From Methanomicrobiales archaeon (GTDB taxonomy: Archaea > Halobacteriota > Methanomicrobia > Methanomicrobiales > Methanospirillaceae): DNA of 64,000 nucleotides. Shown piece after piece: positions 1 to 9,443 of this stretch. Within the stretch, counting starts at the first letter, position 1. Every line of letters begins with the position of its first letter. Location of the stretch: the NCBI GenBank assembly GCA_037137755.1, contig JBAXJR010000002.1, forward strand, positions 64,001-128,000, given 5' to 3'. Position numbers and translations under genes: made by a program. A model generated the notes under the pieces. That model saw only the letters and a list, made by a program, of their open reading frames with translations. It was not told the origin of the DNA and did no database searches.

Positions 1-2
1 CC

Positions 3-1040
3 CTCGTCATCACCCCGGATGCTGTCAGGATGGGCCCTCCGGGGTCGGCTCCCAGTTCCTCCGACTCGTCGCAGGTAATATCCAAGGCCCAACTGAGTAA
101 AATCAGGATTGCTGCAGGAACTAATGCAAGTGCTATTATTCCCGTTTATTCGAAAAATACCGAGTTCGTTCTCGGTTCTGTGCCAGGCAGGGGCATGCTC
201 TACGGGATCGACCCTGATGATCTCACGTCGTTTCTCACGATCGCAAACGTTACAAACATTAACGGAATAAATGATGCACTTGTGGGGTCAACTATTGCCA
301 CCAACTTTGACTTAAAAATCGGTAGCAGGATCAAGATTGGATCGAGTACAGCAGATTCCCGCCCGGAGGCCCGGATTGTAGGGATCCTCGAAGAACGGGG
401 AATGGCATCGGACCGTGTCAGTACTGACAATGCAATTGTTGTATCCGATACATGGTATACCAACCAGTACGGCGGGGAAAATGAGTACCCGCAGGTAAAT
501 GTGATTGTTAAGAACATCGATTCGATAACCGGTGTCGAAGCGGCAATTGACGCGAAACTCAATACAGATGAGAAAAAGCCAGTTATCAGGATCCAGGACG
601 CAAGTTCACGGTTATCGAGTATCACCTCGACGCTTGGAACGATGACCACGTTTATACTGGCGATAGGAGCCATCTCGCTCCTGGTCGCTGCCACCAGCAT
701 CTTCAATGTGATGATGATGTCGGTCACCGAGCGGGTGCATGAGATCGGAATCCTTCTTTCGATTGGAACAGAGCGTGGGGAAGTCCGCAGGATGTTCCTG
801 TACGAGGCGATCATACTCGGTATTATCGGCGGAGGTGTAGGGGCTATCAGCAGCCTCGTCATCGGCTATTCCGTCGTGAGTGCCATGATCGGGACAACGA
901 ATTATTTCTTCCTGCCTGAAAGTATCCTGTATATCCCCCTTGGCATGGTTATTGGTATCATTGTCTGTGTAATCTCCGGGCTCTACCCTGCATGGCGGGC
1001 ATCGAACATGGACCCGATCGACGCACTGAAAAGCGAGTGA
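3..1040 (+). CDS. MacB/FtsX-family ABC transporter permease (5' end lies outside the window)
   Basis: The frame is open from position 3. An extracellular domain is followed by the C-terminal FtsX motif IFNVMMMSVTERVHEIGILLSIG...EA, three TM helices and YPAWRASNMDPIDAL. Confidence 0.92.
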   Translation, partial: LVITPDAVRMGPPGSAPSSSDSSQVISKAQLSKIRIAAGTNASAIIPVYSKNTEFVLGSVPGRGMLYGIDPDDLTSFLTIANVTNINGINDALVGSTIATNFDLKIGSRIKIGSSTADSRPEARIVGILEERGMASDRVSTDNAIVVSDTWYTNQYGGENEYPQVNVIVKNIDSITGVEAAIDAKLNTDEKKPVIRIQDASSRLSSITSTLGTMTTFILAIGAISLLVAATSIFNVMMMSVTERVHEIGILLSIGTERGEVRRMFLYEAIILGIIGGGVGAISSLVIGYSVVSAMIGTTNYFFLPESILYIPLGMVIGIIVCVISGLYPAWRASNMDPIDALKSE

Positions 1041-1277
1041 TTACGGCAGAGATACCGCTCGTAGAACTATGTGGATTATATAAGCCATAATCCTGGGTAA
1101 TTACGCAGTGCCGGGCTGGAGCCCCCCATTTTTAGATTTTGGGGTTTTATCTCTCCCTGATACAATAATTTTCTTTAATACTGTTCCCCCGACTACAACT
1201 TTAATCATTGACCCTCAGACAATTTTAGCCTGATATATTCAACGTTCTGGTTCAATTATTCCACTCCCCTATGCAGT

Positions 1278-1372
1278 ATATCACTCCTCGCATGCGCCGA
1301 ATATAACTCCGTGCCCGGAAACGGAATCCATGATGATTTCCTGATCGGGGATCATCAGAAAAAGGAGGTGAT
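1278..1372 (+). promoter_or_regulatory. Copy A of a duplicated promoter-like plus hairpin module
   Basis: ATATCACTCCTCGCATGCGCCGAATATAAC (1278-1307), a 24-nt spacer, a GATGAT...ATCATC stem (1332-1356), then AGGAGGTGATC (SD-like). The first 30 nt match 2046-2075 at 26/30. Confidence 0.6.
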
Positions 1373-2045
1373 CGTAAGCGGAACGAGTAAACAAGGTTGG
1401 AATATACTTGATCGGACAGCAGGATTACTATCGTATTCCCCCCCGGTAGGTCTGGTGATCACAGGCAGGAACTTCTTATTGACCATGATGAAAAAATCCG
1501 TGGAAAACCCCGCCCGGGTAACAGGAGTGTAATCACCGGGCCCGGGAGAAAAGGCCGGAAAATATTCAGACGGAAAACTACGTGTGAAGGATAAACAACG
1601 AGCGCAATCAAAGGATAAGAGATCGATACCCTGGATCGCACAGGGATTTTTCTGGTGTGGGTCTGAGCCAGTGAAAAATCGGCACCACTACCATTAAAAA
1701 CCTGTTTCAACGATGTAATTCTCCCATCAGGAAAAAGAATGGACAGGCACCCGACAACCCATCCATTCTTTACCGGGTATCTGTGATACCATTTTTCCCA
1801 TTCTTTGAAAAAACGTTCCAGGCAGGGACTGCAATCATCATGAGACCTTTGCTCACTTGGTTTACCCGGCTGTGATAGAATTCTGAACTTTTTGCGGTAA
1901 CGGCTCCCGGCAGAGTTTCCGTATCGCTTGTTACAGTCGAAGGCGATTTCCGGGGAATAAGCCTGTGGATTATCAGGGATCGGATTATCTTTTTTGAGAT
2001 ATTATCTTCACGAGGTGGTGCTATTAATGGCCTCCCCGGTTCATC

Positions 2046-2137
2046 ATATCACTCCACGTATGAACCGAATATAACAGGGCCGGTGGTTATTCTTATCCGG
2101 ATGATTCTACCCGGAGTAGATCATCGGAAGAAGGATG
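2046..2137 (+). promoter_or_regulatory. Copy B of the duplicated promoter-like plus hairpin module, upstream of the lipoprotein gene
   Basis: ATATCACTCCACGTATGAACCGAATATAAC (2046-2075), the same 24-nt spacer, a GATGAT-TCTAC-CCGGA-GTAG-ATCATC stem (2100-2125), then GGAAGAAGGA. Confidence 0.6.
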
Positions 2138-2335
2138 CAAATTAAAACCCTGGAGATCCGTCAGGGCCTGGGTTATAATCACGTCCGGTTACCGCGGTGA
2201 TTTGCGATAACTTCTACCATACCAGCCACTCGAATTTTCGGGTTTCAGCCAGTTACGAAATAAGAGATGACGTATACGTGTATCCTGGTACCAGGTAGGT
2301 ACCATGCCACGATAGTTCTAAAAGAGAGGTATCTC

Positions 2336-2689
2336 ATGAAAAAAAGCAGGATATCCATGCTGATTGTTTCAGCAATCCTTGTCGCAGGAATTTTCTGTGC
2401 GGGATGTACAGATTCGGGTAGTGCTACAACGCAATCCGGGACTAATTCAGGTGCAACAGTACAGCCCCAGTCTTCTACTTCACCAAATACAGAAAAACCA
2501 AACTGGGTCTCACCAGCAACTCCACCTGATCAGGTAATGACCGTAAAAGATGGGCCGCAGTTCAACCAGTCTGATGCTCCTTCAGGAACACCCCCGTCCG
2601 GAGTGATGATAAATGGCCCCCGTCCATCAGGTACTCCCCCATCAGGTGGCGGTCAGCCTCCATCCGGTACTCCGCCAACCGGTCAGTAA
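2336..2689 (+). CDS. Pro/Ser/Thr/Gly-rich lipoprotein, probably disordered
   Basis: GAGAGGT RBS before ATG 2336. Signal MKKSRISMLIVSAILVAGIFCAGC with a lipobox. Three PSGTPP(S/T)G repeats at the C-terminus. Confidence 0.8.
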   Translation: MKKSRISMLIVSAILVAGIFCAGCTDSGSATTQSGTNSGATVQPQSSTSPNTEKPNWVSPATPPDQVMTVKDGPQFNQSDAPSGTPPSGVMINGPRPSGTPPSGGGQPPSGTPPTGQ

Positions 2690-2807
2690 TGTGTTCCATC
2701 TGATAATCAGTGGGCCCTGTCATACGGTGGTTGACCAAAGGACCTGCTGAGAAACCAGGTCCTGTATGAGGGCCCACTGGCAGCAGTTGAAAAAATGTAA
2801 TTATTCA

Positions 2808-3051
2808 GGCTTTGTTGAAACCCTGCATATTTTTTAAAAAGAGGGGATACGTTGACATGAGGGGGTTTCGCCCTTCCCCCAATAAGATATCCATTGAGTA
2901 AGGGTTCATTGTAGGCATTCAGGAAAATTTCAGAGATTTAAAAGATTATTCCCTATCCCAACCCGGGGTCCCCAGAGCGGCGGACCATGAGCCCCGGGTG
3001 CGTGACTAAATATCGGAGTAACCTAAACGCCAGGATTGATTAAAAAGGGTT
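2808..3051. mobile_element. Degenerate copy of the MITE at 14445-14705
   Basis: Begins GGCTTTGTTGAAACCCTGCATATTT and aligns co-linearly with 14445-14694 (CCCCCAATAAGATATCCATTG, GATTATTCCCTATCCCAACC, GCGTGACTAA). The right TIR has decayed after AGGGTT. Confidence 0.8.
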
Positions 3052-3187
3052 CCCCATGTAAATGCCTGAACGATCCCCCAATACGTGGAGATTTAGAAAT
3101 GATATTTTCATGGTTCGGGTGTGAAATTCTCGTTCATGTGTGTTTCTACAGAGCCATTATTCCCATTTATTTTTGGAAAATGGGGTT

Positions 3188-5212
3188 TCAGGGCCTGATT
3201 TTTTTCAGGTCCGTAAGTATTTCTGTGACTGAGGCATACCGGTTTCCCGGATTTTTCTTCATGCATTTGAGAATGATTTCCTGAATTACCGTGCCCTCCG
3301 CTCCAGGTAATTGCGGCAGTACTGGGTCATCATAGAGGATAGCGTGCATTATCGCTGCGATACCCTCCCTCCTGAATGGTACATTCCCTGTCACCAGATC
3401 ATACAGCAGGACCCCTAGCTGGTAGATGTCTGTCCATGGTCCGGTGTCCCCGAAAAGGTTCGGGGCCAGCTGTTCAGGTGCTGCAAAATCCGGGGAAAAG
3501 CTGATGAGTGCGGTCTGTTTTGTATCGGTAAGTGCTTTTGCAAGTCCCCAGTCGGTAATTTTCGGGACTCCCTCGTCAGACATAAGGACATTTTCCGGCT
3601 TGATGTCCCGGTGAATGATACCCCGTTCATGGGCGTATTGAAGACCTTCAGCCACACCGGTAATAATTTCAACTGATTTATCGATTGAAAGGGGAAGCCG
3701 CATTTCCGCAAGGGAGGTCCCGAAATATTCAATTTCAATATAGGGTACCGGGAAAATATTTGCTGAATAAATCTCCACAATATTTTTGTGGTGAAGCCCC
3801 TGCCAGAGTTGAAGCTCTTTGGTGAAATGGGTCCCTGTTACCTCATCAAACCGTATGGGGACTTTAATGGCAATGGTTCTTCCCTCGGCATCCTTTGCAC
3901 GGAATACCCGCCCGACTCCGCCTTCACCCATATATTCTGCTCCGGGGTACTTCTCACCGAGGGAAGGCGGGAGACGGGCTGCATAGTGCCGCTGATCCTC
4001 AGGAACCGCATCCCCATGCCCCGGGTACCCGATCGTATTCACAACCGTGTTACTCTGGGATTGTGTCCCTTCGTTCCGGTCATCCCTCCCGTGTCTTTTG
4101 CGCCACCAGCTCCTTTCATACCAGATACCCGCAACCGCCGATACAACGATTATGATCGGAATTATCCACCATAACGGGCCAAGGTTTCCAGGGAAGGGTG
4201 GGGGTTGGTTCTGGATAGAACCCGGGCCTGCTGAAAACGGGTTATTATTCAGTGGCTGACCTGCAGGGGCCGTTACAGGCATATCGGCAACCCGTATCAT
4301 GGTATAGGACAAGGGGGGCTTTGAAAGGGGTGCATAATCAGTAATTGATGCACTCATCATCTGGTTTCCTGGAGAACCCGGGCCTGTATTCTGCGATATA
4401 TACTGAATGTTCCGTGCAATCTGCTCACTGGCATTATCCCCGTTACCTGGGATCATGAAATTCCCGAGCACCCCGGAACCGGTATTCTGTACGATGAAGG
4501 GAACGTCTCCTACTCCATCACCATTTGCATCTTCCCCCTGGTAATCCGTCCAGAAATTTCCGAGAGAACCGGTCAGGTTTTTTCCACCATACTGGTACTG
4601 CAATGGGGTACTGTCCCATAACAGGTCTGGGGACTGGCTCATCACATTCATGGGATTGTCAAAGTAATTCAGAAATACTTTGTTCATCTGCGACTTGCGG
4701 TCCGCATAGATCCCAACCGAGTTATTGACGAGAATATTGTTGGAAATTTCGTTATGTTCCGCGGATTCCAATCCGATTCCACGTTGAAGTCCGGTGATGC
4801 TGGAGTTATGAATCTTATTATTTTCCGACTGTATGAGAATACCATATCGGGCAGTCCCCGAGAGGGTTATGCCATCAACAACGATGCCACTGGCACTCAG
4901 CGTGATCCCCGCAATACCATCACCGGATATTATTTCCGGCGGATTCTCCATATCCAGCGCTCCAAGAACAATTGACCGGTTTATGACAAGATTTTCTTGC
5001 CAGGCACCATTTTTCAGAAGGATTGTATCCCCATTTTCAGCAGTACTAACCATGCCCTGCAGGGAACTGTTGCCTTCGTCCGCCGGGTAGATAAACACAG
5101 TAGCGGTTGCCGGGGATGAAACGAGGTAGAGAACTACCAGTACCAGGACAACCAGGATGTTCCTTGTTGCCGATATCGTCCTTACCCGCGGACTTCCTGC
5201 CCTCATAATCAC
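3188..5212 (-). CDS. Single-pass receptor-type Hanks Ser/Thr protein kinase with extracellular NosD/CASH beta-helix
   Basis: Signal peptide; parallel beta-helix repeats; GNFWTDYQGEDANGDGVGDVPF (NosD-like end); Pro-rich linker; TM helix LWWIIPIIIVVSAVAGIWY. Kinase motifs GEGGVGRV, IAIK, FTKE, HRDIKPEN, DWG, APE and DIYQLG. Confidence 0.93.
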   Translation of the reverse strand: MIMRAGSPRVRTISATRNILVVLVLVVLYLVSSPATATVFIYPADEGNSSLQGMVSTAENGDTILLKNGAWQENLVINRSIVLGALDMENPPEIISGDGIAGITLSASGIVVDGITLSGTARYGILIQSENNKIHNSSITGLQRGIGLESAEHNEISNNILVNNSVGIYADRKSQMNKVFLNYFDNPMNVMSQSPDLLWDSTPLQYQYGGKNLTGSLGNFWTDYQGEDANGDGVGDVPFIVQNTGSGVLGNFMIPGNGDNASEQIARNIQYISQNTGPGSPGNQMMSASITDYAPLSKPPLSYTMIRVADMPVTAPAGQPLNNNPFSAGPGSIQNQPPPFPGNLGPLWWIIPIIIVVSAVAGIWYERSWWRKRHGRDDRNEGTQSQSNTVVNTIGYPGHGDAVPEDQRHYAARLPPSLGEKYPGAEYMGEGGVGRVFRAKDAEGRTIAIKVPIRFDEVTGTHFTKELQLWQGLHHKNIVEIYSANIFPVPYIEIEYFGTSLAEMRLPLSIDKSVEIITGVAEGLQYAHERGIIHRDIKPENVLMSDEGVPKITDWGLAKALTDTKQTALISFSPDFAAPEQLAPNLFGDTGPWTDIYQLGVLLYDLVTGNVPFRREGIAAIMHAILYDDPVLPQLPGAEGTVIQEIILKCMKKNPGNRYASVTEILTDLKKIRP

Positions 5213-5221
5213 TATCAGAGT

Positions 5222-5989
5222 TCACTCATTTACAATAAAAAGGAACCGTGCAGAATTTTTTCCCATTGCAAGGTCGATAACGTCACCATTTTTCAACGGG
5301 GTCTTAACCTTTTGTTTAATTGACTCCGAGTTTACAAAGGTACCCCCGGAACTGCCATAGTCCTCGATTTTCCAACCGGGCCCGATTTTTGAAAGGATTG
5401 CATGTGGTTTTGTGATCCTTGTTACTACAATATACTCTTCAGCTAGCACAATGTCCCCTTCGGTTGTCATTGATGGTGTGTCAGGATCGATCCTTCCGAT
5501 AAGGACGCGGTCCTTTTTAATCAGGTACGTCACACCCGCATTCTTACCTTCCAGGAGGTGGAGTGCAGGGAAATCATTTCCTGATTCCCTGAGCACTGCT
5601 GCCCGCACCGAATCAAGGCGTCCCTGGATATCACCGTACCCGATCGGGATATTAATCCTTGAAAAGACCCCCATATTTTTAATGAGCGTTTCCATGCCCC
5701 CCTCTGCGAGTGAAAATTTCCAGACCGGATGAATTCCTTTAGCGGTCTCCCTTCCAAAACCCGCCTCTTTCTTCACAAGCCCGATATGGACGAGCTGGTC
5801 GATGTGCTTTTTGGTGTTTGCATAGCTCGTCTCGATACGGGCGGAGATCTCACTGATCTCCTTTGGCTCCCGCTCGATAACCTTGATTATTTTCAACCGT
5901 ATCGGGTTGGAAAGCACGTCCAGATATTCGGACAGTTCCTGTAAAAACGCGGGGTCCGTTGAAATTGAAATTGTTTCTCTCTCGGTCAT
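5222..5989 (-). CDS. ArsR-like winged-helix transcription factor fused to a C-terminal FHA domain
   Basis: N-terminal LDVLSNPIRLKIIKVIEREPKEISEISARIETSYANTKKHIDQLVHIGLV (wHTH). C-terminal IGR...VTRITKPHA...IEDYGSSGGTFVN...LKNGDVIDL (FHA). 9-bp gap to the kinase gene. Confidence 0.88.
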   Translation of the reverse strand: MTERETISISTDPAFLQELSEYLDVLSNPIRLKIIKVIEREPKEISEISARIETSYANTKKHIDQLVHIGLVKKEAGFGRETAKGIHPVWKFSLAEGGMETLIKNMGVFSRINIPIGYGDIQGRLDSVRAAVLRESGNDFPALHLLEGKNAGVTYLIKKDRVLIGRIDPDTPSMTTEGDIVLAEEYIVVTRITKPHAILSKIGPGWKIEDYGSSGGTFVNSESIKQKVKTPLKNGDVIDLAMGKNSARFLFIVNE

Positions 5990-6373
5990 TTGCTAAAAAC
6001 ACCCGGGATATGTTAGTTGCACACAGGGATTCTGCAGGTGTGATTCATTAAACTATCCCTGTTTCTTGATAAACGGGATTGTTCTCTCTCACCCTTAGTA
6101 AGGCCTTGCGAATATTAACCTGTTGAATCTTAAAAAACAGGATATATAATCGATGATCGAATCCGGTGATATTAATCCCCGGAATGGAACATGATCTCAC
6201 TACTACAATATCTCCATTATAGTAACCGTGCTGACAGGGGAGAAAGGATAATCAAACTGATTATTGGGTTGTGATAACGAAAAAAATACCGGATAACTCG
6301 ATATTATTGCATAACAAAAAGGAGCCCTTCTATTCATGATTACAAAACCAGGTGTGTGAACCTCTGGTCCCCG

Positions 6374-6853
6374 CTAGTCCTGTGCAGTCATCTCGATCTC
6401 GACCATCGCACCCCTGGGCAATCCTGCGACCTGAATGGTTGAGCGGGCAGGAGATGAATTTCCTATGTAATGTGCATATATTGTATTGACGGTACTAAAA
6501 TCAGATAAATTTGTCAGGTATATCCGGGTAACAACCACATCGGAAAAGTCAAGACCTGATTCCCGCAGTATCTCCTGCAAATTCCTCATTACCTGGTCTG
6601 TCTGCCCCTCAATTGTGCTGGAAAGGTTACCTGTCTCCGGGTCAATACCGATCTGTCCGGAGGTATAGACGAGATTATCGGAATGAATCGCCTGGCTGTA
6701 GGGACCGATCGGTCTGGGTGCCTTATCGGTAACAATAACCTGTTTCTGGTGATGGGGTGGAATGAGGACTACAAGGCTCATCACGATCATTCCCAAAAGA
6801 AAACATGCGATAACCAGCAACAGGGTATTTCTGTCAACTTTCAGATCACTCAT
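6374..6853 (-). CDS. ridA: RidA/YjgF/UK114-family enamine deaminase with an N-terminal hydrophobic anchor
   Basis: APRPIGPYSQAI, YTSGQIG, PARSTIQVAGLPRGAMVEIE (catalytic Arg and Glu present). Extra ~20-residue hydrophobic N-terminal segment. Confidence 0.88.
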   Translation of the reverse strand: MSDLKVDRNTLLLVIACFLLGMIVMSLVVLIPPHHQKQVIVTDKAPRPIGPYSQAIHSDNLVYTSGQIGIDPETGNLSSTIEGQTDQVMRNLQEILRESGLDFSDVVVTRIYLTNLSDFSTVNTIYAHYIGNSSPARSTIQVAGLPRGAMVEIEMTAQD

Positions 6854-6930
6854 TTATACCAGCCTCTCCTGTACTATCTATCGGAAATTCTGTCCCAAAT
6901 ACTTATTTGTCTGCTCATGAGACCGGATTA

Positions 6931-8706
6931 TTATTCGATACGGTCATAGCCTGGATCATCCGAACGGTCGGGTGTTATTCCTGGTTTCTCCTTTGGCTTT
7001 ACCTGGATCTCCCGAATGACCCGTGTCCCGCCCATCGCGGATAATATCGCAGCGATGATGGAAAGTAGGGCCCCGATGTAGAAGGAGATCCGAAGCGACG
7101 GCATGAAGGCCGTTGCAAGGGTTGTCGGGAACCAGGTCGTGCCAGTCAGGGTTGTTATGGTTGTGGGGCTGATCGTGGCAACGATCGATGCCGGTACTGT
7201 TACAAGGATCGCCTGGACCGGGTTGTATCCCAGGAATGCGGCAAATAATGCACCTGTCGGTGGAATTGTACTCATTGGGATGATTAGTTCAGGGGCCCCG
7301 GCTTCTGTAAGCGATGTAGCGAGTACCGGGGGAAACATGTGCGTCATGCTGATGATGACGATGGTGAAAAACAGGGCCATGGAGACGACCATCCCGGTGT
7401 TCTGCAGCATCGACCTCATGCCCGACGCGACACCCCGGTCTTCCGGGGGCACAGAATTCATGATGGCCGCGATATTCGGCGCACCAAACATGCCGTTCCC
7501 GAGGCCCATGATCAGGAGTGCGACAGCGAAGACCGGGTATTCAAAGTTATACGGCAGCACGGCCAGTATCAGGAACGCGAGGGCGATGAGGAGCATACCG
7601 GACGTTGCGAACCACCGGGAGCCGTATGTATCTGATAACCAGCCTGACAGAGGGCCCATGATAATAAACCCTGCTGTGAGGGGCAGCATGAATATCCCGG
7701 CCCAAAACGGTGTCGATTCATAGCTGTAACCGTGAAGCGGCAACCAGATGCCCTGCAACAGCATGATCAGGAGGAACATCATGCCCCCGCGGGCGAGTGC
7801 ACCCAGGAACCCGGCTGTGTTCGCAAGGGAAAATATCCTGTTCTTAAAAAGGGCCAGCCTGAACATCGGGTCCTCAACCCGGCTTTCAATGATCGGGAAT
7901 GCGATCAGAAGGGCGATTCCGATGAACATGGATGCCTGTACCCATGGATTGCCCCATCCCATCGGGTCCTGTCCGTACGGGAGAAGTGCATACGTGATAC
8001 CGATCAAAAAGATAGTCAACCCGGCAACAAAGGTGATATTGCCCCACACATCTACCTTCAGACCCCGTTTCGGTAATGATGTCTCTTTGAGCTTCATGAA
8101 GGCCCATATCGTGCCCAGGATACCGACCGGTACACTGACGAGAAACACGTACCGCCAGTTGTAGAATGCGAGGATTCCACCGAGGATGAGGCCAATGAAC
8201 TGGCCCGACAGGAACGCCATCATGTTGAGCCCCAGGGCCTTGCCACGTTCACCAGGTGGGAATGCATCGGTGAGGATTGCCGCACTGTTGGAAAAGGTGA
8301 ACGATGCACCAACTGCCTGGACGAGACGGAACACAATCAGCTCAATTGCACCTGCATCCCCTGTTCCAGGCGTGAGAAAAAGCAGGATGGAACCGAGGGT
8401 GAAAATGGCAAACCCGATATTATAGAGCTTCACCCTCCCGTACATGTCCGAAAGCCGGCCGAAACTGAGAAGCAGTGTTGCGGTGACGAGGCTGTACCCC
8501 ATCAGTATCCAGATCAGGTACTGGAACGAGGTGAGCGGGTCGATATTGATGCCGTTGAAGATCGCAGGCAGCGAGATGAGGATGATGCTCCCGTTCACGG
8601 AGACCATGAACATCTCGATCGTCGTTATCGAGAGTACGATCCACTTGTATTCGATGCCTTTTTTGACAGATCCTGTGTTATTGCCTGCGATTTCGCTTTT
8701 TTCCAT
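6931..8706 (-). CDS. MFS drug:H+ antiporter, DHA2 (14-TM) type
   Basis: Motif [33 protein letters not shown], and many TM segments. Confidence 0.92.
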
Positions 8707-8824
8707 TCTGATCGGGCTGTCCCCCGGGATAATCCAAATGTTTTTCCTGGATATGTAAACTATCCTTTACATCGTTGGATCTTTTTGGACTATAATGTTT
8801 CCAGATTGAATTGTCATTAAAAAT

Positions 8825-8844
8825 TTCGTCCCAAGTTGGACTAT
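8825..8844. promoter_or_regulatory. Putative PadR-type operator upstream of the MFS gene
   Basis: TTCGTCC-N6-GGACTAT has the same half-sites and spacing as the dyad in front of padR. An extra GGACTAT half-site lies at 8787-8793. Confidence 0.4.
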
Positions 8845-8975
8845 TTGCTGTACTACTTTTATCCAGCCCCTCAAAAACAATAAAGCGTAATGAGAAAAAG
8901 GAATACCCCCCTCGCAGAAACCGGAAAGTGTTGTATCGTGACACCAACCTGTGAAGAGACGGGAACGTCCGCCAT

Positions 8976-9443
8976 TCACTCTCTATTCTGCTCAAGTACG
9001 GTCATGCGGGGATAAAACCCGAACCCCAGGTAAAATTTCCACGCTCCTTCGTTCCCGTCGCCGACCGAGACCCGGTTCCTGACCGATCCGTTCGCGTCAA
9101 GCCATGCGAGAGCCCTGGTCACTAATGCGGAACCGATCCCCCGTGAACGGTATCTGTCTTCAACGAATATCGACTCGATCTCGCCCTTCTTCTCTTGTGA
9201 CAGGGAACTGACACAGTACCCTATATACCGGCCGGATTCCGTGTCGAAAACAAGGTCCAGTTGCAGAGACCCCGTCGATGCGATCTTTTCAAAAAACTTC
9301 TTACGATCGTCGAAGGTCATCTTCTCGTAGTGCTGCCGGAAGGTCCCCGCACGTGTATGGTGATATTCGTTGAGCTGGACCCATAGTGGCCTGATCAGCT
9401 CGATGCTGGTGATGCCTGATGTCCGGTATTCAAAGGGCGGCAT
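8976..9443 (-). CDS. GNAT-family N-acetyltransferase
   Basis: EIESIFVEDRYRSRGIGSAL (acetyl-CoA motif A) and NEGAWKFYLGFGF. Start placed at ATG 9443 because the longer ORF overlaps the permease. Confidence 0.88.
   Translation of the reverse strand: MPPFEYRTSGITSIELIRPLWVQLNEYHHTRAGTFRQHYEKMTFDDRKKFFEKIASTGSLQLDLVFDTESGRYIGYCVSSLSQEKKGEIESIFVEDRYRSRGIGSALVTRALAWLDANGSVRNRVSVGDGNEGAWKFYLGFGFYPRMTVLEQNRE

Follow-up and report, generated by a model that had tools for sequence, protein, structure and literature searches.

The window analyzed here, a 64,000-nucleotide stretch of contig JBAXJR010000002.1 from a Methanomicrobiales archaeon (positions 64,001 to 128,000; genome G000, 2.64 Mb in 106 contigs, 90.6% complete), carries near its start two adjacent reverse-strand genes that are the subject of this work (Table 1). 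The upstream gene codes for a regulator in which an ArsR-type winged helix-turn-helix (wHTH) domain is fused to an FHA domain, and the downstream gene codes for a receptor Hanks-type Ser/Thr kinase. The two are tightly packed: the TGA stop codon of the regulator gene (5224-5222) is followed by nine bases and then by the GTG start codon of the kinase gene at 5212, with an in-frame ATG at 5206. A first-pass annotation, made from the letters of the DNA, had described a wHTH-FHA gene 9 bp upstream of a kinase gene; both open reading frames (ORFs) lie at exactly the positions it gave, and all the motifs that it quoted (GEGGVG, IAIK, HRDIKPEN, DWG, APE, and LTDTKQT in the kinase and GR in the FHA domain) are present in the translations.

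Table 1. Features of the regulator-kinase locus. Positions without a prefix count from the first letter of the window; L117, stretch of DNA preceding the window; aa, amino acids; nt, nucleotides; ABC, ATP-binding cassette; TM, transmembrane; AF2, AlphaFold2; PWM, position weight matrix.
Feature	Position	Strand	Basis or remark
wHTH (ArsR-type)-FHA regulator gene, 255 aa	5222..5989	-	ORF, Pfam, AF2 model
Regulator winged helix, residues 13-94	5708-5953	-	AF2 model
Regulator linker helices (two), residues 98-136			AF2 model
Regulator FHA sandwich, residues 142-252	5234-5566	-	AF2 model
Regulator candidate phospho-acceptor Thr6, codon	5972-5974	-	conservation
Promoter and 5' leader of the pair	5990..6085	-	alignment A3, PWM scans
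Receptor Hanks-type Ser/Thr kinase gene, 674 aa	3188..5212	-	ORF, Pfam, hydropathy, alignments, model
Kinase ectodomain, parallel beta-helix, residues 47-243	4484-5074	-	Pfam NosD/Beta_helix
Kinase Pro-rich stalk	before TM helix		
Kinase TM helix, residues ~342-366			hydropathy
Kinase juxtamembrane Thr389	4046-4048	-	alignment of 65 kinases
Kinase domain, residues 426-666	3215-3937	-	Pfam
Small lipobox protein gene, 117 aa, convergent with kinase gene	2336..2689	+	ORF; no Pfam family
MacB-type (FtsX) ABC permease gene, 3' part	1..1040	+	Pfam FtsX; NCBIfam MacB/LolCE-like below cut-offs
ABC ATPase gene of MacB-type transporter	L117:11095-11832 (G000:C2:63095-63832)		
446-aa CARDB-like surface protein gene, C-terminal anchor	L117:9800-11140		homology
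VTC-DUF4956-Cthe_2159 operon, divergent from CARDB operon	L117:5226-8954	-	Cthe_2159: carbohydrate-binding beta-helix protein
Module copy 1	1236..1361	+	nhmmer E 4.5e-15
Module copy 2, upstream of lipoprotein gene	2004..2130	+	nhmmer E 1e-12; sequence model E 3.2e-11
Module copy 3, facing divergent VTC-DUF4956-Cthe_2159 operon	before window		nhmmer E 4.8e-5
Module copy 4, ~120 bases before CARDB-like gene	before window		nhmmer E 0.057

The gene content of G000 itself speaks for a dedicated pairing of the two proteins. The genome has two FHA matches, two Pkinase matches above the cut-off plus a weak one below it, and one PP2C match. Both FHA genes code for wHTH-FHA proteins, and each lies directly upstream of one of the two kinase genes; that two FHA genes and two kinases should form two pairs indicates that the pairing is not due to chance. 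At the second pair, on contig 17 (L006:6292-10347), the wHTH-FHA gene is accompanied by the gene for a kinase that has a PEGA-domain ectodomain and crosses the membrane with several segments, and by the single PP2C gene of the genome; no phosphatase is encoded at the window locus. A gene for a 1093-aa PKD-domain surface protein adjoins this second pair, and a thioredoxin gene is found upstream.

The association holds throughout the order. Among the 61 Methanomicrobiales genomes compared, the regulator is present in 50 and the kinase domain in 51, with the kinase lacking a regulator only in G041 and the pair occurring in one to four copies per genome. A same-strand kinase domain lies within 5 kb downstream for 66 of the 72 wHTH-FHA matches, and within 1.9 kb for 64 of them; at the two loci with a separation of ~4.9 kb the kinase is shared with a second FHA gene, and the six matches without a kinase include a 71-residue partial match and one that lies on a contig of 2,024 bases. 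The two-gene unit is thus co-conserved, as the first-pass annotation had anticipated. At the level of the phylum, a regulator profile built from 31 sequences (alignment A1) and applied at E <=1e-20 matched 36 of 301 genomes, G000 included, all of them in the order of the window and in its families f1-f5. These matches cover 35 of the 47 other genomes of the order, and none was obtained in the eight genomes of family f6 or in the 253 genomes elsewhere in the phylum. Only 59 of 1.84 billion cluster representatives match the profile at E <=1e-30, and the best 80 of 294 relatives in a species-genome collection belong to Methanoregula, Methanoregulaceae, Methanolinea, Methanoculleus, Methanomicrobium, Methanogenium, and Methanomicrobiales, a few being named only as "Methanobacteriota archaeon". 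Since all matches in the phylum fall inside one order, the module appears to be specific to Methanomicrobiales, as far as sampled. The pairing of regulator and kinase is real and ancient within the order, and the predicted coupling of the two proteins is strongly supported by comparative evidence.

Domain assignments (Pfam with gathering cut-offs and NCBIfam with its own cut-offs) and AF2 models compared with the Protein Data Bank by Foldseek bear out the architecture of the regulator. It passes the Pfam cut-offs for FHA (39.6 bits vs 20.7, residues 164-240), HTH_20 (31.4 vs 27), and HTH_5, the ArsR family (27.3 vs 22, residues 26-74). It falls outside the NCBIfam model for the ArsR metalloregulator subfamily (NF033788, 28.8 bits vs a cut-off of 55), and as no NCBIfam model reaches its cut-off with either protein of the pair, no curated family covers the regulator or the kinase. 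The AF2 model, computed from 57 sequences, has a mean predicted local distance difference test (pLDDT) score of 85.9, with residues 1-7 disordered (pLDDT <50). Its top Foldseek matches are GarA with PknB (6i2p), OdhI, EmbR (2ff4, 2fez), and DgcB, the last as an FHA domain in complex with the phosphorylated N-terminal tail of the protein (6hc0, 6hc1), and the modeled FHA sandwich aligns with the FHA structures of GarA, OdhI, and EmbR at a probability of 1.00. By sequence, the winged helix aligns with the structure of an archaeal ArsR-family regulator (2p4w, E 0.0093), and 1uht is the match of the FHA part. The recognition helix, T-S-Y-(E/A)-N-T-K-K-H (residues 54-62), is basic and invariant in 31 of 31 regulators, including those of different paralog clades.

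Two elements of the regulator are of interest for the predicted phospho-Thr signaling. One is the FHA domain, the phospho-Thr motifs of which have been named as GR, SxxH, and NG (PMC1262709, in the part of the text consulted); in the regulator family GR is represented by the invariant residues 165-166 and (S/T)xxH by T193-K-P-H196, NG being replaced by GG, with G165, R166, H196, S213, and N220 conserved in all 31 sequences. The other is the disordered N-terminal tail. When N-termini from all sampled loci were compared, using those rows with an ELSEYL-type motif, the position of Thr6, 12 residues before ELSEYL, was Thr in 91 of 91 distinct sequences, followed by V/I/L at +1 in 90 and by I/L/V at +3 in 88, giving the motif x-T-[VIL]-x-[ILV]. 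Many FHA domains prefer an aliphatic residue at the pT+3 position.

The kinase domain of the partner scores above the Pfam cut-off (134.3 bits vs 31.7, E 6.7e-39), and its catalytic motifs are complete, with the active-site Lys of IAIK at position 450. K450, H534-R535-D536, N541, D554-W555-G556, and P579-E580 are invariant in 36 full-length kinases, and the catalytic residues, including the Trp of DWG, are kept at >=90% in 65 kinases from all clades; thus, DWG replaces DFG throughout the family. The activation loop contains Thr residues (LTDTKQT). Toward the membrane, a juxtamembrane Thr followed by two aliphatic residues (S-N-T-V-V in the window, R-N-x-T-V-V-K in most orthologs) occupies the Thr389 column in 52 of the 65 kinases; as read by eye from the alignment, it is present in all window-type and all seven short-ectodomain rows, with few instances in the other clade. 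Two contigs of an RNA-library run, 184 and 169 nt long, agree perfectly with portions of the kinase gene; the library may contain DNA, and these contigs are no proof of a transcript, just as the gaps in their coverage do not speak for a silent gene.

On the extracellular side, the N-terminal half of the kinase passes the Pfam cut-offs for NosD (71.8 bits vs 23.6, residues 96-226) and Beta_helix (37.6 vs 25.9), and a hydropathy scan of the protein shows two hydrophobic segments, at ~10-42 and at the TM helix. The AF2 model of the ectodomain (36 sequences, pLDDT 82, block means >90 for model residues 21-200) is a right-handed parallel beta-helix. Pfam, hydropathy, and this model together uphold the succession of NosD-like beta-helix, Pro-rich stalk, single TM helix, and Hanks kinase that had been read at first pass. 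The ectodomain shares its fold with NosD of the NosDFY copper-delivery ABC system and with polysaccharide lyases, its Foldseek matches being PL6 alginate lyases, chondroitinase B, pectin methylesterase, and, at rank 5, NosD of NosDFY (7o0y, E 4.4e-3). Matches of this kind make a sugar-polymer ligand plausible on structural modeling; since all of them are weak (best E 1.4e-3), no ligand can be assigned. The ectodomain is not a member of the NosD maturation family (TIGR04247, 74.8 bits vs 300), and no nos genes occur in the neighborhood.

Parts of this design are seen in several well-studied systems. Like PknH-EmbR of Mycobacterium tuberculosis, the pair comprises a membrane receptor Ser/Thr kinase and a regulator joining a winged helix to an FHA domain; pknH and embR are neighbors in mycobacteria, and EmbR structures stand at ranks 4 (2ff4) and 7 (2fez) among the fold matches of the regulator. 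However, EmbR has an OmpR/SARP-type winged helix with a BTAD domain, whereas the regulator has the ArsR-type HTH_20/HTH_5 and lacks both Trans_reg_C and BTAD (Pfam, E <=0.01), and only the FHA part aligns with EmbR (root mean square deviation of 12.8 over 178 columns for 2ff4). The present family further differs from EmbR in being archaeal and restricted to one order, in its invariant N-terminal Thr tail, and in having GG in the place of NG. In archaea, the FHA protein ArnA/ST0829 of Sulfolobales, from the regulation of the archaellum and of the response to DNA damage, is phosphorylated by a Hanks kinase, with the R, S, T, and N residues of its FHA domain needed for kinase binding, and a Sulfolobales FHA regulator binds promoters in a phosphorylation-dependent manner (PMC5007285, in the sections consulted). 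The pair is similar to it in setting an archaeal FHA protein alongside a Hanks kinase, and the ArnA FHA structure (5a8i) is the rank 41 fold match. It differs in that ArnA carries a zinc finger and has the vWA protein ArnB as its partner (same sections of PMC5007285), whereas the regulator has a winged helix and no zinc-finger family by Pfam, with no vWA gene among the neighbors examined. A further difference is that the kinase gene comes next in the operon and codes for a large ectodomain.

The best FHA fold matches are GarA/OdhI and Bdellovibrio DgcB (6i2p at rank 1, OdhI 4qcj, and DgcB 6hc1). As in these proteins, the N-terminal tail of the regulator family is disordered and contains a conserved Thr, the phosphorylation of Thr6 being a prediction. 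Those proteins regulate enzymes and lack a DNA-binding domain; the regulator has a winged helix, and it is not an equivalog of OdhI (NCBIfam, 22.3 vs a cut-off of 200). There is finally a resemblance, in logic only, to BceRS-BceAB of Firmicutes, where a sensor kinase and a regulator are encoded with a MacB/FtsX-type ABC transporter: here too a signaling pair lies beside a transporter of the MacB/FtsX family that it would induce. In contrast to Bce, the pair uses a Ser/Thr kinase and an FHA reader instead of a His-Asp phosphorelay, the permease is of the MacB type with one periplasmic core domain (Pfam MacB_PCD and FtsX), and the window kinase has a large ectodomain of its own; no histidine kinase or response regulator genes lie next to the transporter among the neighborhood genes examined. 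An assignment of the kinase to the ESCRT-linked kinases of PMC11188069 was rejected because of their different architecture, which, in the part of that text consulted, consists of an N-terminal TM segment, Ig-like repeats, and a C-terminal PCI-like domain, without a wHTH-FHA partner.

The genomic neighborhood was used to ask what the pair might regulate, taking the best 80 of the 294 relatives mentioned above as a set of 39 orthologous loci (regulator >=67% identical to that of the window, permease sought within a 6-kb flank) and 41 loci of other clades. The beta-helix kinase is present at 34 of the 39 orthologous loci, the other five being on short contigs or ending within ~700 bases after the regulator, the lipoprotein at 30, and the permease at 26, so that the synteny of wHTH-FHA, TM kinase, and MacB permease that the first-pass annotation had proposed to look for does exist in the clade of the window. 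Neither lipoprotein nor permease occurs at two orthologous loci with full flanks (L067 and L075) or at any of the 41 loci of other clades. Upstream of the pair, the window has a RidA-like gene and a major facilitator superfamily (MFS) transporter gene (Pfam); these neighbors are not conserved, RidA being found at 0 and MFS at five of the 39 loci. The lipobox protein starts with MKKS..AGC and continues in a Pro/Ser/Thr/Gly-rich tail. The permease gene begins before the window and is preceded in its operon by the genes for the CARDB-like surface protein and the ABC ATPase. Between the lipoprotein and kinase genes, contigs of DNA runs X6 and X7 skip 109 bases at window ~2832-2943, and loose contig ends fall at the same places in DNA runs X5 and X6, which looks like an indel polymorphism in the population.

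A link between the pair and such a transporter recurs in a second gene order. Permease paralogs are common, with two to five per genome in a survey of the 61 genomes (150 of the 153 matches listed), and a permease lies within 15 kb of 10 of 71 regulator loci (the partial regulator match omitted) among the matches listed, five of these having the convergent arrangement of the window. In three genomes, two from family f3 (G043 and G058) and one from family f4 (G044), the permease gene is instead co-directional and lies 53-102 bases upstream of the regulator gene, and the Pfam annotation of two of these loci reads CARDB protein, ABC ATPase, MacB_PCD+FtsX permease, wHTH-FHA, and kinase. The 446-aa protein of G000 is 36% and 31% identical over its length to the CARDB proteins of the co-directional clusters (E 2e-78 and 1e-69). 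The convergent and co-directional arrangements fall in different clades of a midpoint-rooted FastTree phylogeny of 33 regulators, the clades being taken without support values.

Further evidence for a local regulon comes from a promoter module. Upstream of the lipoprotein gene, 26 orthologs share a block consisting of a GGTTCAAnTAnT-like element, TATCAC, a GAATATAA TATA-like box, and, ~25 nt beyond that box, an inverted repeat ATGATC..GATCAT. A profile of this block, derived from the lipoprotein promoters of 13 other genomes with the window excluded, was run with nhmmer on the whole 2.64-Mb genome and gave six matches at E <=10; the four with E <0.1 are all in C2:61.1-66.1 kb, and a match at E 0.13 falls inside a coding gene. 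The two copies within the window are 768 bases apart and include a 60-nt direct repeat (1248-1307/2016-2075), and the two further copies (L117:9064-9185 and L117:9557-9687) precede surface protein operons (Table 1). At the corresponding loci in three other genomes, no VTC-DUF4956-Cthe_2159 operon was seen. No copy is present at two paralogous CARDB-ABC-MacB clusters of G000 (contigs C28 and C32). Three other genomes, examined over the 19-20 kb that surround the pair, also have the module in front of both the lipoprotein gene and the CARDB gene. When the same 13 rows were made into a sequence-only covariance model and five whole genomes were searched with it, there were 24 matches at E <=0.1, of which 20 lie within 11 kb of a window-type regulator gene; one of the five genomes may overlap the training rows, so that its best match may be a self-match. 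The only strong match elsewhere is in G017 (E 9.5e-8), 23 bases before the gene for a 511-aa lipobox protein (L138:1603-3250; G017:C1:44603-46250) that has no Pfam family and whose N-terminal region is Pro/Gly/Ser-rich like the small lipoprotein; the possibility that this protein is a relative of Cthe_2159 was discarded, as no similarity was detected (E 9). Rfam gave no match at E <=0.1 in window 1-9000. The module is the best evidence that the neighboring surface genes may form one small regulon, a proposal drawn from its conservation, and it leaves the binding protein unspecified.

Taken together, these observations lead us to propose, with moderate confidence, a two-gene phospho-Thr module specific to Methanomicrobiales, in which a receptor Hanks kinase with a variable sensor acts through an ArsR-wHTH-FHA output protein on adjacent genes. 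The most likely mechanism would combine a relay like that of PknH-EmbR with an N-terminal phospho-Thr switch like that of GarA/DgcB, with output on the adjacent surface and transporter genes. A cell-envelope signal would activate the kinase, which would autophosphorylate on the activation loop (T565/T568 region) and on the juxtamembrane Thr389 (N-T-V-V); the FHA domain of the regulator would dock on a phospho-Thr of the kinase, and the kinase would phosphorylate the regulator on the invariant Thr6 of its disordered N-terminus. An FHA domain, belonging either to the same regulator molecule or to its partner, would in turn bind phospho-Thr6 in the way known from GarA/OdhI and DgcB, and this capture would alter the dimerization or DNA binding of the winged helix. 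The output would be transcription of the adjacent module-bearing genes, namely, those for the lipoprotein(s) and the CARDB-ABC ATPase-MacB operon and, here, also the VTC-DUF4956-Cthe_2159 operon, and the single PP2C, encoded at the paralogous pair, would reset the system. What nominates Thr6 and Thr389 as candidate phosphosites is their conservation. A more elaborate version, which we find possible but doubtful, would make this a Thr-based archaeal "two-component system", with the FHA domain capturing its own phosphorylated Thr tail and thereby flipping DNA binding, and, in the clade of the window, with the CARDB-MacB transporter and the lipoprotein as a Bce-like envelope-stress or detoxification module in which the transporter is a co-sensor.

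The assumption of a local output also calls for a look at the promoter of the pair itself. In 24 orthologs, this region has a conserved BRE/TATA-like block (a B recognition element with a TATA-like sequence), a ATGATAGTATGATAAAG-like block, and then a variable hairpin. In window 5990-6060 and the orthologs, the hairpin varies in sequence and comes just after a conserved ATGATAAAG block (GCACAC/GTGTGC, GCGTAC/GTACGC, GCAGATCTCCGA/TCGGAGATTGC); RNAalifold found no consensus structure in this 5' leader, and single-sequence folds are weak (mean z -1.1, 7 of 24 below -1.5). PWMs of the pair promoter detect no second copy near the lipoprotein or transporter genes in 412 kb from the 39 loci, and a k-mer search of 49 regulator upstream regions from other clades produced nothing matching the motif of the window clade. 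A "TATTGAACC..GGGATCATAT" pattern upstream of the regulator gene, which resembles the upstream element of the lipoprotein promoter, was considered as a shared element and dropped: it belongs to a divergent promoter region in the orthologs, where the other copy falls within the coding sequence of a 737-aa protein, and the window has not conserved it. The first-pass suggestion that the output falls on the MacB and lipoprotein neighbors therefore stands in part: synteny, the second gene order, and the shared module favor it, and the regulator's own promoter, which lacks the module, and the want of an operator do not.

A number of observations weigh against a local phospho-Thr circuit of this kind. 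The sampled relatives are kin, so that the conservation counts overstate their independence. In the FHA domain, the canonical S-x-N-G-T is S-(S/T)-G-G-T in 31 of 31 regulators, with NG replaced by GG215-216; hence, two of the three phospho-Thr motifs are kept. Thr6, with its hydrophobic +1 and +3 residues, could equally be part of a structural beta-strand. The invariant recognition helix predicts one DNA specificity for all paralog clades, which sits badly with a local regulon for each paralog. No operator could be named for the regulator, and the pair promoter shares no recognizable element with the module. Within the module, the spacing between the ATGAT..GATCAT arms is ~8-12 nt (alignment read by eye), with the inner stem of the window changed on both sides; such variable spacing would be easier to reconcile with a hairpin in RNA than with a fixed operator or a rigid site for a dimer. 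Other clades adjoin other genes, such as that of the PKD surface protein at the second pair of G000, and in G035, of another genus (L137, G035:C1:47001-63000), the wHTH-FHA gene stands between an operon for a polar-amino-acid ABC importer, which it follows, and a PP2C gene. The kinase gene of this locus, 3 kb further on, comes after a second FHA gene in which Pfam recognizes no HTH.

The window locus itself adds to these points. Codon 111 of its ABC ATPase gene is an in-frame TAA, the only one in the gene, in the place of Tyr in an ortholog. This site is covered, with no difference listed, by a contig from a DNA run that is not flagged as a possible source. The stop is probably real, and in this population the gene probably is a true pseudogene or undergoes readthrough. 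The site of module copy 1 is followed only by a short truncated MMKKS.. ORF of 15 codons and a stop (~1487-1534), with no convincing ORF in the rest of window 1540-2000, and thus looks like a decayed remnant of a tandem lipoprotein paralog. The pair promoter of the window is a poor fit to the clade consensus, with 19.9 of 41 bits for the downstream block and no match of >=12 bits to the TATA block in a PWM scan. From the in-frame stop, the module copy before a gene remnant, and the poor promoter match, it appears that the local system may be decaying in G000.

Several of these findings could be accommodated by other explanations. One is transporter-coupled sensing as in Bce systems, in which the MacB transporter, with the CARDB protein and/or the lipoprotein, would be the sensor or co-sensor, the kinase would read its activity by way of the membrane or ectodomain part, and the regulator would induce it; as a corollary, the binding partner of the beta-helix would be the transporter complex and not a free glycan. 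The recurrence of the transporter beside the pair in two gene orders and two clades of the regulator tree is in its favor, as are the presence of the shared module at the transporter operon and the occurrence of NosD of NosDFY, a beta-helix that works with an ABC transporter, among the weak ectodomain matches. So is the build of the 575- and 508-aa kinases encoded in the co-directional clusters, with several hydrophobic segments and little extracellular sequence, as is likewise the case in intramembrane-sensing kinases. Nevertheless, no permease match lies within 15 kb of 61 of the 71 regulator loci among the matches listed, the best of the ectodomain matches, all of them weak (E >=1.4e-3), are polysaccharide lyases and not NosD, and both the analogy and the contact between kinase and transporter are postulates; we consider this explanation rather unlikely. 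Distinctly unlikely, in our estimate, is that the pair is real but its neighbors are not its targets, some other factor binding the module and the regulator controlling distant or global genes or only itself. The identity of the recognition helix in all paralog clades, the lack of an element common to the pair promoter and the module, the differing neighbors across clades, and the strong module match far from the pair in G017 would all fit such a situation. Yet the module is concentrated beside the pair in five genomes (20 of the 24 matches) and absent from the paralogous transporter clusters of G000, and the transporter linkage recurs in the second gene order.

The remaining alternatives concern the nature of the proteins. 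The wHTH-FHA protein might be a phospho-dependent adaptor in the manner of mycobacterial FhaA/FipA, connecting the kinase to envelope or division proteins and using its winged helix for protein contacts. The best NCBIfam match of the FHA part is indeed FhaB/FipA, albeit at 33.4 bits, far below the cut-off of 125, and winged helices can mediate protein contacts, as in archaeal ESCRT-linked proteins (PMC11188069, in the part consulted). Against this, the N-terminal domain is above the Pfam cut-offs for HTH_20 and HTH_5, aligns with the ArsR-family archaeal regulator 2p4w (E 0.0093), and has an invariant basic recognition helix, making the adaptor role quite improbable. Close to refuted is the idea that the kinase is an anti-phage defense kinase of the PD-T4-6, MADS, or Stk2 kind. 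It was raised by matches of the PADLOC models PD-T4-6 and mad6 (E 5.5e-51 and 5.6e-45) and of NCBIfam MAD6 to the kinase domain, but these are confined to the generic kinase domain (residues ~418-672), the MAD6 score is 122 vs a cut-off of 460, no defense genes were seen among the neighboring genes examined, and the pair is stable, order-wide, and vertically conserved in one to four copies per genome.

Signaling by Ser/Thr phosphorylation in archaea has been worked out almost exclusively in Sulfolobales. A 2016 review of archaeal phosphorylation, in the sections consulted, treats only ST0829/ST1565 and ArnA/ArnB and names no methanogen system (PMC5007285), and the consulted part of the main text of a type IV pili census, its supplementary tables lying outside the search, has no description of the module (PMC4858521). 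Mhun_1501, a possible member of this family at most, was more abundant in bi-culture (PMC9275234). Makarova et al. 2014 (PMC4158269), considered as a source on FtsX-type clusters, was set aside, as FtsX, FHA, kinase, and CARDB do not occur in its text. The first-pass annotation had known of no characterized equivalent in methanogens, and our literature search, which excluded supplementary tables and arCOG annotation, agrees in finding no description of the module. Should the mechanism be simply that of PknH-EmbR, the result would be a solid and unsurprising extension of a known design to methanogens; the system is of interest for archaeal signaling and for the envelopes of methanogens and is not a new principle. 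The new leads are the invariant N-terminal Thr of the regulator and the conserved juxtamembrane Thr of the kinase, which suggest how the two proteins may communicate. The system is very small and apparently closed, a 2.6-Mb genome having just two kinases with two FHA regulators and a single phosphatase. Its pairing is fixed across a whole order of environmentally important methanogens, and it comes with candidate phosphosites, Thr6 and Thr389, and with a putative regulon that a promoter module specific to the locus sets apart. By virtue of this combination, it would permit a direct test of how an archaeon might couple an extracellular signal to transcription without a His-Asp phosphorelay, and it would also reveal what the widespread archaeal CARDB-ABC-MacB clusters respond to.

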